A model generated the notes under the pieces. That model saw only the letters and a program-made list of their open reading frames with translations, was not told where the DNA came from and searched no databases. A DNA stretch of 17,827 bases from a virus, in UHGV virus genome UHGV-0159506; one strand, written 5' to 3'. This document shows, piece by piece, positions 10,064 through 12,426 of the stretch. Position numbers and translations under genes: made by a program. Position 1 is the first letter of the stretch. Each line of letters begins with the position of its first letter.

Positions 10064-11038
10064 TTATCCGTTACCGCGCGACGGTTTCTGCGTGATAAAC
10101 GTCTCAAGCATCTTTTCCGCAATTGCCGACCAGGTGTGACACTGGACCTTTTCAGCATTTTTCACGCGATCAACGCGAGCAATAACCTCATCCCAATCAA
10201 TCCGCGACTTGATAACCATATGGTTCACCAAAGCCAGGCGATCTGGCGGAAGGCAATCGGGAGGCGTTAATACCAACGCCCCGCACATTGCCGCCTCAAG
10301 TACAGTTAATCCAAGGCTTTCGGGATGCGTAACGATAAAAACGTCACTCTTACGCAATTCAGCTGCAAATTCGGTTGCTGGTACCGGAGTCCGTCTGTAT
10401 GGGGTTACCGAAATATTCCCCGGCTCAATGGTAACCAATCCGTCATCGGTCAACGTTCTGGCCTCATACGGAACGGTCAGACGCTGAAGGTTCATAAGGA
10501 TACTTAAGGAGTGATCAAACCCACTAACATCAAATGCAGCGTGGTCTACAAAAATACGCAGAACATCGTCTGTTTTGGTTTCCAGATGGAACAGCTCCTG
10601 ATTCGCTGCCCATCCAACATGTTTGTTAAAACGATTATGACGCTCTAACCTGCCGGGATTATCCAGGTACCGCCAGGTATCATCGCGGACAGTAAAAGTA
10701 ATATCGACTGGTGCCGAATCCAGCATAGAACCGTCGTATACCTGGGCTACCCATCCAGTGAATCGACGACGCAGTTGCACGCCTATTTCCCTGGGCACCG
10801 TAGTAAAATACCTCAATCCTGGTGCCAAAATGGCCTTCGCAGAACATGCGGTCGCAGCAGTCAACACAGCTTCAACATAATCCTCCGGGCTTTCGACGCC
10901 GGGGGAATATGGACGATGGTATTGCAATGTTACCCCTGCCTCACTAAAGGCGCAGGCCAGGTTGTAAGCCCACATTTCCGTATATGTTTTCACATCACTG
11001 ATAGCTTCAAATTTTCGCCCAATGATCAGGATGTTCAT
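10064..11038 (-). CDS. GT-B fold (GT4-like) glycosyltransferase-like protein
   Basis: Track ORF of 332 aa beginning at the ATG at 11062, which overlaps the helicase stop as TAATG. The internal ATG at about 11038 (MNILIIG) has a GAGGAA SD and looks like a Rossmann beta-1 start, so either could be used. The C-terminal E-x7-E motif (HPESLGLTVLEAAMCGALVLTP) is typical of retaining GT-B enzymes. Confidence 0.6.
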   Translation of the reverse strand: MNILIIGRKFEAISDVKTYTEMWAYNLACAFSEAGVTLQYHRPYSPGVESPEDYVEAVLTAATACSAKAILAPGLRYFTTVPREIGVQLRRRFTGWVAQVYDGSMLDSAPVDITFTVRDDTWRYLDNPGRLERHNRFNKHVGWAANQELFHLETKTDDVLRIFVDHAAFDVSGFDHSLSILMNLQRLTVPYEARTLTDDGLVTIEPGNISVTPYRRTPVPATEFAAELRKSDVFIVTHPESLGLTVLEAAMCGALVLTPPDCLPPDRLALVNHMVIKSRIDWDEVIARVDRVKNAEKVQCHTWSAIAEKMLETFITQKPSRGNG

Positions 11039-11061
11039 CGGCTTTTCCTCATTCCATTGCA

Positions 11062-12426
11062 TTAATAATCCTCTTGCCAGTCAGCACCAGCATAGTTATC
11101 AAACCGTGAGTATTGGCCGTTAAAAGCCAATCTCACCGTGCCAATTGGGCCATTTCGTTGCTTTCCGATAATTACCTCGGCAATGCCCTTCATTTCGCTA
11201 TCCGGGTGATAAACTTCGTCGCGATACAGAAACATGATCAGGTCTGCGTCCTGCTCAATTGCTCCTGATTCACGTAAATCTGAATTTACCGGTCGTTTGT
11301 CCGCACGCTGTTCAAGCGATCGATTAAGTTGTGACAATGCCACCACCGGTACTTGTAATTCCTTCGCCAACGCCTTCAGTGAGCGAGAAATCTCGGCAAT
11401 TTCCAGCGTTCGGTTATCTTGCAGCTCGGGGACGCGCATAAGTTGCAGGTAGTCGATCATAATCATGCTCAAACCACCATTTTCTTTATAAACACGACGA
11501 GCGCGGGAACGAAGCTCTGTAGGTGTCAGGGCGCTTGAGTCATCAATAAAAATATTCTGCTTGTCCAACAGAATACCCATTGCGCCAGAAACCCGCGCCC
11601 AATCCTCGTCGTTAAGTTGCCCTGTTCGAATACGAGTCTGATCAACGCGTGCAAGAGAAGCCAGTGAGCGCATCATCAGCTGGTGGCTCGGCATCTCAAG
11701 GCTAAAAACCAATACGGGCTTATCGTTACGGACTGCGGCATTTTCGACGAGATTCATCGCAAACGTGGTCTTCCCCATAGATGGGCGGGCGGCGACAATG
11801 ATGAGATCGGACGGCTGAAGCCCTGCCGTCTTCTTATTGAGATCGGTAAATCCCGTATCAAGCCCCGTTACACCATCATGTGGTCGCTGAAACAACTCTT
11901 CTATGCGAGATACCGTTGCATCGAGAATGCTGGCGATATCTTTTGGACCACTACCGCTCTTTTGTCGTTTTTCAGCTATTTCAAAAACGCGGCGCTCGGC
12001 CATATCCAGCAATTCATTGCTGCCCCTGCCATCCTGCGCATATCCAGCTTCGGCTATTTCATTTGCGACGGAAATCATTTCACGAACAACCGCGCGTTCA
12101 CGAACGATATCCGCATAAGCACAAATATTTGCCGCGCTGGGCGTGTTCTTTGACATCTCCGCAAGGTACGCAAAACCACCGGCGCGTTCTAATTTACCGT
12201 TCTGTTCAAGTGCTTCAGCAAGTGTTATCAAATCAATCGGTTTGCCATGACTTAATAACCTCTCCATCTCACTGAAAATTTCACGATGAGCACTGGTATA
12301 AAAATCATCAGCAACTATACGATCTGCAACTTCATCCCAGCGGCAGTTATCAAGCATTAAGCCACCAAGTACAGCTTGTTCTGCACTAAGGGAATTTGGC
12401 ATGGATTCAAGAGGGGATGCAGACAT
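11062..12426 (-). CDS. ban: DnaB-family replicative helicase (phage P1 Ban-like)
   Basis: Track ORF of 456 aa, co-linear and highly similar to E. coli DnaB as I recall it (AEQAVLGGLMLDN, SDLIIVAARPSMGKTTFAMN, RNGPIGTVRLAFNGQYSRFDNY). The likely start is the ATG at 12424-12426, preceded by GGTGGAG. The context (tRNA-Ile, TerB-like gene, tRNA-Thr/Asn, methyltransferase) matches my recollection of the P1 ban region. Confidence 0.9.
   Translation of the reverse strand: MSASPLESMPNSLSAEQAVLGGLMLDNCRWDEVADRIVADDFYTSAHREIFSEMERLLSHGKPIDLITLAEALEQNGKLERAGGFAYLAEMSKNTPSAANICAYADIVRERAVVREMISVANEIAEAGYAQDGRGSNELLDMAERRVFEIAEKRQKSGSGPKDIASILDATVSRIEELFQRPHDGVTGLDTGFTDLNKKTAGLQPSDLIIVAARPSMGKTTFAMNLVENAAVRNDKPVLVFSLEMPSHQLMMRSLASLARVDQTRIRTGQLNDEDWARVSGAMGILLDKQNIFIDDSSALTPTELRSRARRVYKENGGLSMIMIDYLQLMRVPELQDNRTLEIAEISRSLKALAKELQVPVVALSQLNRSLEQRADKRPVNSDLRESGAIEQDADLIMFLYRDEVYHPDSEMKGIAEVIIGKQRNGPIGTVRLAFNGQYSRFDNYAGADWQEDY

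Follow-up and report, generated by a model that had tools for sequence, protein, structure and literature searches.

The locus studied here raises the question of whether a phage-encoded replicative helicase and the sugar transferase encoded immediately behind it belong together. In UHGV virus genome UHGV-0159506, the helicase gene ban runs into the glycosyltransferase-like gene dbn on the minus strand, which carries all coding in positions 10064-12432 of the window, by which we mean the whole stretch of 17,827 nucleotides that was analysed. An initial annotation had taken the overlap of the two genes as an argument for co-expression, had called the pairing unusual and had remarked that the phage encodes at least four putative glycosyl-transfer proteins. 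It is this last remark that proved to be the key observation. The four proteins are Dbn, PmgO, PmgP and PmgQ, the last three encoded in the left operon, and comparison of gene neighbourhoods indicates that the conserved partners of dbn are pmgO, pmgP and pmgQ, not the helicase gene. The genes concerned are:

11062-12426, minus strand: ban, DnaB-family replicative helicase of 454 amino acids (aa) from its ATG, assigned by Pfam, TIGR00665 and identity to P1
10064-11062, minus strand: dbn, putative GT-B-fold, GT4-like glycosyltransferase, a long open reading frame (ORF) of 332 aa (324 aa from 11038)
3489-4151, minus strand: pmgO, MptE/WaaZ/GT42-like putative ulosonic-acid transferase, assigned by PHROG 4603, a joint profile and motifs
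2965-3591, minus strand: pmgP, paralogue of pmgO, MptE/WaaZ-like, assigned by a weak PHROG 4603 match, a sub-threshold Pfam match and motifs
1593-2294, minus strand: pmgQ, putative GT-A-fold, GT8-like glycosyltransferase with invariant DLD and FHGxPRP

By DNA comparison the window is approximately 98.7% identical to phage P1, and a 2.5-kb segment matches 18 phage records, including P1, P7, RCS47 and SJ46, over its full length at 98.1-98.8% identity (98.6-98.8% for these four). The ban-dbn pair is already known and has been in GenBank since 2004 with the glycosyltransferase guess on record: the P1 entry AF234172 (NC_005856) labels ban 'replicative DNA helicase' and dbn 'function unknown, possible glycosyltransferase', and the second gene of the pair is named glt in the P7 record. 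New here are the placement of Dbn in a distinct small GT-B clade and its placement in a cassette common to unrelated phages.

To describe the surroundings of dbn, we compared 81 P1-like loci, taken from IMG/VR and one genome, with 17 non-P1 loci of 4-21 kb each, which carry divergent dbn homologues (38-58% identity) and were found by exact-protein look-ups. Two scans of IMG/VR, one of them led by a divergent sequence, returned P1-like loci only, and a scan of species-representative genomes yielded three loci. The helicase gene accompanies dbn in all 81 P1-like loci, in seven of them with another ORF in between, whereas a Ban/DnaB-like gene occurs in none of the 17 non-P1 loci within the span covered, so that the suggestion of a meaningful helicase-transferase pairing did not survive the comparison. 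Found with dbn in these phages are the pmg genes. Their order is pmgO-pmgP-dbn-pmgQ, with overlapping ends, in L006 and in the cultured coliphage EP_H11; pmgO-pmgP-X-dbn-pmgQ in L004 and L170; pmgP-dbn-pmgQ-pmgO in L007; and pmgO-pmgP'-pmgP-dbn-pmgQ in L172. Homologues of pmgO adjoin those of dbn in L004, L006, L007, L168, L170 and L172, and pmgP homologues lie directly upstream of them in L006, L007, L168 and L172. The Citrobacter-type P1-like locus L171 (relatives L003 and L005) reads pmgO-pmgP-pmgQ-...-pmgS, with dbn about 4.5 kb further on and on the same strand; there is no ban in L171, and an unrelated 202-aa gene precedes dbn. Adjacency of ban and dbn is not obligatory even among punaviruses. 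All four families are present in 7/7 independent phage lineages with enough flanking sequence, the order being shuffled and the content kept.

A protein fusion and bacterial loci show the same association. P0131 (522 aa), encoded at 4304-5872 of the metagenomic phage locus L175, joins a PmgO-like part (residues 24-218, 120 bits) to a Dbn-like part (residues 219-520, 162 bits); its gene lies within a cluster of head-closure, HK97-gp10-like and tail-completion genes, three genes upstream of a Methyltransf_21 (FkbM-type) gene. In four unrelated bacterial loci (L089, L091, L092 and L095), the gene immediately after an MptE/WaaZ-like gene is Dbn-like. One of these, in Brucella pseudogrignonensis (L089), is a kps-type locus with the series Poly_export, Wzz, ABC-2, ABC_tran, GT1, unknown, WaaZ-like and Dbn-like; the pair in a Colwellia-like metagenome-assembled genome (L092) also lies in a kps-type ABC-transporter capsule locus, and those of L091 and L095 lie in other glycan loci. 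The WaaZ-like bacterial neighbours match TIGR04437 (WaaZ_KDO_III) at 57.5 and 38.4 bits. In P1, dbn lies about 6 kb upstream of the pmg genes on the same strand, with an inverted tail/baseplate operon in between. Judging from gene content, we think it fairly probable that the four genes are a conserved module which has been split in P1.

The junction of ban and dbn contains the following features:

11060-11064, minus strand: TAATG, in which the ban stop and the dbn ATG overlap by one base (read from the sequence)
11069-11073, minus strand: GAGGA, a Shine-Dalgarno-like element 6 nt before the overlapping ATG, in the last ban codons (read from the sequence; putative function)
11045-11050, minus strand: GAGGAA, a Shine-Dalgarno-like element 6 nt before the second ATG, Met9 (read from the sequence)

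The overlap is present as the initial annotation had read it: the ban TAA (11064-11062) and the first dbn ATG (11062-11060) have one base in common, and the 332-codon ORF ends at 10064. Eight codons past the first ATG, a second in-frame ATG (11038-11036) encodes Met9, and 12/15 homologues with a complete N-terminus start at this position (MNILIIG), with the pattern M[KNR][ILV]L[ILVY]I[GA]. The first eight residues of the 332-aa protein are poorly modelled, with a predicted local distance difference test (pLDDT) score of 61 for the block. Since the homologues start at Met9, the real protein may be shorter than 332 aa and lack the exact overlap; the conserved form of Dbn, as the alignment indicates, is the 324-aa protein, which would begin 23 nt after the ban stop. 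Among the P1-like loci, the junction is TAATG in 72, TGATG in two and different in seven. An overlap with a Shine-Dalgarno element in the upstream gene is the layout of a coupled pair, and it is kept in 74/81 loci. In the remaining seven a 101-aa ORF intervenes, and dbn begins there at the Met9-equivalent ATG behind AAGGAGA, its sole start. This inserted ORF (7699-8004 in L081; also in L080, L082-L084, L086 and L087) belongs to PHROG 12809, overlaps its neighbours by 4 nt at both ends and replaces codons 1-8 of the long dbn ORF; it has no Pfam match, and no PADLOC match at E≤0.01.

Overlaps of this kind are common in the region. In the P1 annotation, neighbouring same-strand coding sequences overlap in 11/19 pairs over 22 kb, and tciC/tciB and tciB/tciA overlap by 1 nt as well. 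We read the ban/dbn overlap as the ordinary tight packing of P1 operons and not as a marker of functional partnership. The interpretation given in the initial annotation is thereby supported in part. Some translational coupling of ban and dbn is plausible from the sequence, since no more than 23 nt would separate the two genes even with a start at Met9.

That Dbn is glycosyltransferase-like, as first annotated, agrees with its predicted fold, which is GT-B, with two Rossmann-like beta/alpha/beta domains and a C-terminal donor site. In fold comparison the model is nearest to retaining GT4 enzymes, with figures of 18.6 for BshA, 18.5 for GlgM, 18.4 for PimB', 18.2 for PimA, 16.2 for WaaB and 14.9 for WaaG, and DNA glycosyltransferases give weaker structural matches than generic GT4 enzymes do. 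Fold comparison with BFVD gave generic viral GT1/GT4 proteins only, the best being a Tupanvirus glycosyltransferase (template modelling score 0.77). Loss of the conserved donor-binding residues would have spoken against a sugar transferase; these are present. In the EX7E motif, HPE248SLGLTVLE256AAMCG in the numbering of the long ORF, both E248 and E256 are invariant across 17 homologues, down to 38% identity, and the motif aligns with that of WaaG. In the GT4 enzyme GnaT of Acinetobacter baumannii, mutation of either motif glutamate impairs function (PMC12856342). Dbn belongs to PHROG 2518, which has no assigned function, and a protein 97% identical to it carries the NCBI label 'glycosyltransferase family 4 protein'. 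Pfam gave no N-terminal GT4 domain (Glyco_transf_4, Glyco_trans_4_4) at E≤1, and the sole NCBIfam match was partial, to sucrose-phosphate synthase at 13.8 bits. With a confident GT-B model and an invariant EX7E motif, the predicted sugar-transferase role of Dbn stands.

The gene is maintained in nature. It is intact in 80/81 P1-like loci, and among 56 alleles 69 polymorphic codons are synonymous-only versus 52 that change the amino acid. An exhaustive profile search of 1.84 billion cluster representatives returned only 380 relatives of Dbn, 130 of them at E≤1e-30, with no spill into the GT4 superfamily; by this measure Dbn is a member of a small, distinct and uncharacterised GT-B clade. Many bacterial members are 520-630 aa long, the Dbn-like part lying at the N-terminus and some 200 aa of conserved extension at the C-terminus (P0154, P0160, P0171, P0175, P0186, P0192, P0194, P0200, P0202 and P0204), and in P0140 the Dbn-like unit is duplicated in tandem.

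The three partner genes are still labelled 'putative morphogenetic function' in P1. PmgO falls into PHROG 4603, 'alpha-2,3-sialyltransferase' (E=3.4e-73), to which PmgP matches weakly, and both give matches to the MptE-like family PF01973 (22 and 20.9 bits) that lie under its threshold of 34.6. Neither has an NCBIfam match (the TIGR04437 cut-off is 200 bits). A joint profile of PmgO, PmgP and their bacterial neighbours finds Escherichia coli WaaZ with a score of 48.9 bits, the match spanning residues 15-258, and GPS, N, D and GxD motifs are common to PmgO, PmgP and WaaZ. PmgQ has a GT-A fold, a DxD motif and a C-terminal HxxGxxKPW-like motif. For Dbn, PmgO, PmgP and PmgQ, PADLOC returned no defence-system match (E≤0.01).

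PmgO-like genes are much commoner in phages than dbn (73 versus 22 records). Pseudomonas phage D3 (L173, 4337-5055 and 6394-7789) carries one between its major head protein and head-tail adaptor genes, and another is present in Klebsiella jumbo phage Eowyn (L174, 3498-5583). Near the PmgO-like gene, both phages encode a hypothetical protein of about 275-296 aa and a methyltransferase, an arrangement suggestive of a different small cassette with the same MptE-like enzyme at its centre. In the window, the gene pmgM (4315-4893, minus strand; 'putative morphogenetic function') matches VRR-NUC at E=3.1e-4 and 21.2 bits, under the cut-off of 23.8, and is split into two ORFs in the P1-like locus L081.

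On the basis of folds, motifs, linkage in seven phage lineages and four bacterial loci, and the fusion, together with dispensability known from the literature, we propose that Dbn is one enzyme of a dispensable four-transferase glycan-building module, a reading that we hold to be probable though far from certain; its donors, order of action and acceptor are what we infer. In this hypothetical scenario, (i) four soluble enzymes would work one after another on a single acceptor in the cytoplasm during lytic growth, drawing on host sugar nucleotides; (ii) PmgO and PmgP, by analogy with WaaZ, would add a Kdo-type (3-deoxy-D-manno-octulosonic acid) residue, probably from a cytidine monophosphate (CMP)-activated ulosonic acid, which in E. 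coli K-12 would be CMP-Kdo; (iii) Dbn, modelled as a soluble, GT4-like and probably retaining GT-B enzyme using a host nucleoside diphosphate-sugar, and PmgQ, as a GT8-like GT-A hexosyltransferase, would add hexoses; (iv) the product would be a short glycan of a Kdo-type sugar and hexoses, and the acceptor a Kdo-bearing glycolipid such as the nascent lipopolysaccharide (LPS) core. Within this model a glycolipid acceptor is slightly favoured, a virion protein being nearly as likely. The preference comes from the analogy with two-step systems in which WaaS acts after WaaZ, or the GT4 enzyme GnaT after KdoT, and a glycolipid would agree with the bacterial relatives of capsule and LPS type and with the one CMP-sugar that K-12 has to offer. 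In the E. coli core, WaaZ serves as the KdoIII transferase and WaaS extends its product (PMC4651636), and in A. baumannii KdoT acts before GnaT (PMC12856342). Overexpression of WaaZ is reported to truncate the outer core (PMC4651636; Frirdich 2003, as given in the citing paper).

Several findings weigh against this proposal. The request of the initial annotation for a family assignment by fold and profile was answered by the fold, GT-B and GT4-like, and less well by the profile, since the Pfam match of Dbn to Glycos_transf_1 (PF00534; E=1.5e-5, 25.1 bits) lies under the gathering score of 26.4 and covers residues 229-315 only. Searches of the PDB with the Dbn sequence or a 17-member profile returned no glycosyltransferase (E<0.1 for the profile); the best match among solved structures by sequence, KtrA, was discarded as a mere Rossmann-segment match. 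Taken singly, PmgO and PmgP match WaaZ at only 11.1 and 7.1 bits, and because this distant link runs through intermediate sequences, CMP-Kdo as the donor is a guess. In P1, the four genes are non-contiguous, lie in two differently controlled operons and have ppp between pmgP and pmgQ. The pmg and ban operons are both C1-repressed, and lambdoid relatives have the cassette downstream of Q; this points to lytic or late expression, which fits poorly with remodelling of an assembled outer membrane. Finally, PmgO-like genes or the PmgO-Dbn fusion are found inside head-tail clusters in several phages, which favours a virion target.

The last point leads to the alternative that the same cassette acts on a phage structural protein, glycosylated late in the cytoplasm and perhaps shielding or stabilising the particle, an option that we regard as serious but not probable. 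Mycobacteriophages and chloroviruses glycosylate their virion proteins, and MptE-like domains are found in Maf flagellin glycosyltransferases. Gene position speaks for a virion acceptor in the head gene cluster of D3 and in the tail-completion cluster that holds P0131 near an FkbM-type methyltransferase, in L004, L006 and L170, where the cassette lies between Q and the terminase genes, directly upstream of the latter, and in P1, where a late promoter serves the pmg operon, tail, baseplate and connector genes lie on either side of it and baseplate gene 5 is the immediate neighbour of dbn; the GT8/GT4 structural neighbours also include the protein-glycosylating enzymes GlyE, GlaT, GtfA and SdgB. 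On the other hand, morons often insert into structural clusters without acting on virions, the cassettes of EP_H11 and L007 lie among small accessory ORFs and not among structural genes, and the bacterial homologue pairs in capsule loci point to glycolipid or polysaccharide acceptors. No glycoprotein has been reported in P1 virion proteomics or in decades of work on P1, and the main text of the P1 virion paper does not mention the Dbn and Pmg proteins.

Two further explanations would dissolve the module. If Dbn were a stand-alone moron that alters a host surface glycan, its co-occurrence with pmgO, pmgP and pmgQ would reflect shared ancestry in mobile DNA. The separation of dbn from these genes in P1, the two sigma-70 promoters predicted inside ban in the P1 annotation (one was recovered by our scan) and the occurrence of bacterial Dbn-like genes without a PmgQ homologue would agree with this. 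We nevertheless consider it improbable: all four families are kept together in seven phage lineages despite their shuffled order, a PmgO-Dbn fusion exists, a WaaZ-like gene directly precedes the Dbn-like gene in four unrelated bacterial loci, and promoter-like matches in the window scan are no commoner than in shuffled sequence (2 found versus 6.1 expected). Cooperation of helicase and transferase, by glycosylation of phage DNA at the replication fork, on the model of the T4 alpha- and beta-glucosyltransferases, or sugar modification of Ban, with the overlap fixing the stoichiometry, is more improbable still. It is at odds with the absence of DnaB genes near dbn homologues outside the P1-like loci (0/17), the extra ORF between the two genes in seven P1-like loci, overlaps as the default in the P1 region, the ranking of DNA-glycosyltransferase structures below generic GT4 enzymes, and the polysaccharide-type transferases and capsule loci in which the conserved partners and bacterial homologues are found. 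Ordinary restriction enzymes routinely cut P1 DNA, and P1 is not known to make hydroxymethylated bases, both of which count against DNA glycosylation.

The four-transferase module can also be read more boldly, as a portable cassette in P1 and at least six other enterobacterial phage lineages that decorates virion proteins or rewrites the LPS core, the Dbn clade then being a GT-B family of its own, new and devoted to the extension of glycans that contain ulosonic acid. We put this forward tentatively and would rather doubt it than rely on it. The LPS core is the receptor of P1, and if the bolder version were true, it would mean either that Kdo-type glycosylation of the virion had been found for the first time in a phage of Gram-negative bacteria, or that P1 rewrites its own receptor. 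In the literature searched, which did not include the 2004 P1 genome paper, no function was linked to dbn or to pmgO, pmgP and pmgQ, and a four-transferase cassette was not described.

In the P1 annotation, ban and dbn are the last two cistrons of an operon under the C1-controlled promoters P1ban and P2ban (operator Op72), which also includes tRNA-Asn, tRNA-Thr, tciABC and trnI. Its probable end is the following feature:

10017-10043, between the convergent genes 5 and dbn: GC-rich hairpin, candidate bidirectional terminator of the ban operon (RNA fold)

The hairpin has a folding energy of -17.6 kcal/mol (z=-3.6 versus shuffled sequence), and we think that it probably terminates the ban operon and acts in both directions; a rule-based terminator scan missed it because its T-run lies partly inside the stem. 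Transcripts of ban and dbn are both up at 20 min in a delta-hfq host, a joint rise that fits co-transcription. By CRISPR interference (CRISPRi), dbn is dispensable for plaque formation (PMC10695390), and the table of that screen cites an earlier study (its ref. 73) in listing dbn as non-essential; pmgO, pmgP and pmgQ are non-essential too (PMC10695390; PMC9024508). The GC and third-position GC contents of dbn (0.493 and 0.489) are not set apart from ban or the window (0.486), so there is no compositional sign of recent foreign origin. Three tRNA genes lie upstream of ban on the minus strand (12707-12782, 14239-14314 and 14317-14392), namely one with a CAT anticodon (tRNA-Ile2 in the P1 annotation, Met by ARAGORN), tRNA-Thr(TGT) and tRNA-Asn(GTT). 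Queuosine glycosylation of tRNA, suggested by the tRNA-Asn in the same operon, was set aside in view of the glycan-type conserved neighbours of dbn; tRNA genes were not sought in the cassettes of other phages.

Ban itself was assigned without difficulty. Its N-terminal domain matches PF00772 (E=2.7e-35, 120.9 bits) and its C-terminal domain PF03796 (DnaB_C; E=5e-108, 360.8 bits, 255/255 profile positions), it passes the TIGR00665 equivalog cut-off (573 versus 385 bits), and the Walker A motif SMGKTT is present. By these profiles, Ban is a DnaB-family helicase with complete N- and C-terminal domains. The ORF extends to a GTG at 12432, and the ATG at 12426 is the start annotated in P1. From classical P1 genetics, we take Ban to be able to substitute for host DnaB as the replicative helicase.

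Elsewhere in the window, the methyltransferase gene dmt (15068-17827, minus strand), which runs off the end of the window, contains an intein, some 340 aa long and bearing a LAGLIDADG homing endonuclease. The intein follows approximately residue 78 in terms of P1 Dmt, with ...VVHN|C at its end; the reference P1 Dmt (754 aa) has none, and the P1-like locus L087 has an intact version of 1013 aa. An in-frame TAA at 16991-16993 breaks the intein of the window (PQTL*RKS versus PQKLSRKS in L087), so that Dmt is probably inactivated, unless this is a sequencing error. Gene 24 (baseplate/tail stability; 7593-8282, plus strand) has a 22-bp deletion relative to P1, through which the C-terminus is replaced and truncated, giving a product of 229 aa from an upstream TTG versus 261 aa in P1. 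Gene 24 was essential in the P1 CRISPRi screen (PMC10695390). Taken together, the gene 24 deletion and the dmt stop hint at a defective P1-like prophage plasmid as the possible source of the window.

In summary, our analysis corrects the context in which Dbn should be studied, namely with PmgO, PmgP and PmgQ and not with the helicase. It also singles out a small GT-B clade, so far uncharacterised, whose members are found with WaaZ-like enzymes in the capsule loci of bacteria, and the module view could give a function to four remaining unknown genes of a model phage. We regard this as a useful lead for that phage and not as a surprise of principle.

Compared with known systems, the locus is ban-dbn of P1 itself, with the gene order (a convergent gene 5, and ban and trnI upstream of dbn), the 1-nt overlap and the annotation in common; the window differs as a variant P1-like element with an intein-bearing, stop-containing dmt and a 22-bp deletion in gene 24, and the dbn-ban segment itself holds nothing novel. 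From the retaining GT4 enzymes (WaaG, PimA/PimB', BshA, sucrose-phosphate synthase and GnaT), Dbn differs by an identity of 9-15%, by its shorter length of about 324 aa and, in our reading of the alignment, by an invariant FVDHAAFD where these enzymes have the usual GRxxxxKG-type segment. The T4 alpha- and beta-glucosyltransferases and other phage DNA glycosyltransferases, for instance in phage HY126, have hydroxymethyl- or hydroxy-cytosine in DNA as their substrate and are found together with enzymes that hydroxylate bases (PMC13326640). No base-hydroxylating or hydroxymethylating enzyme was found among the window ORFs scanned, which cover part of the genome, and the conserved neighbours of Dbn are, in contrast to T4-like systems, polysaccharide-type transferases. 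Mycobacteriophage and chlorovirus cassettes share with the phage module several cytoplasmic glycosyltransferases, sometimes an FkbM-type methyltransferase, a place beside structural genes and dispensability for plaques; they differ in that no glycosylated P1 virion protein is known and that sequence kinship does not go beyond folds. Among the E. coli Waa proteins, Dbn shows no similarity to WaaS and a trace only to WaaG, and Dbn as a WaaS analogue by homology was dropped for want of sequence similarity. The phage cassette further departs from WaaZ-WaaS in having two WaaZ-like paralogues and a GT8-like enzyme, WaaZ is only a very remote relative of PmgO and PmgP, KdoT belongs to the GT-B enzymes and is not MptE-like, and no LPS phenotype is known for P1. 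What the module shares with WaaZ-WaaS and KdoT-GnaT is the principle of an ulosonic-acid transferase paired with a second, extending glycosyltransferase (PMC4651636; PMC12856342), and the likeness to the WaaZ system extends to the WaaZ motifs of PmgO and PmgP and to the bacterial WaaZ-like genes directly upstream of Dbn-like genes.

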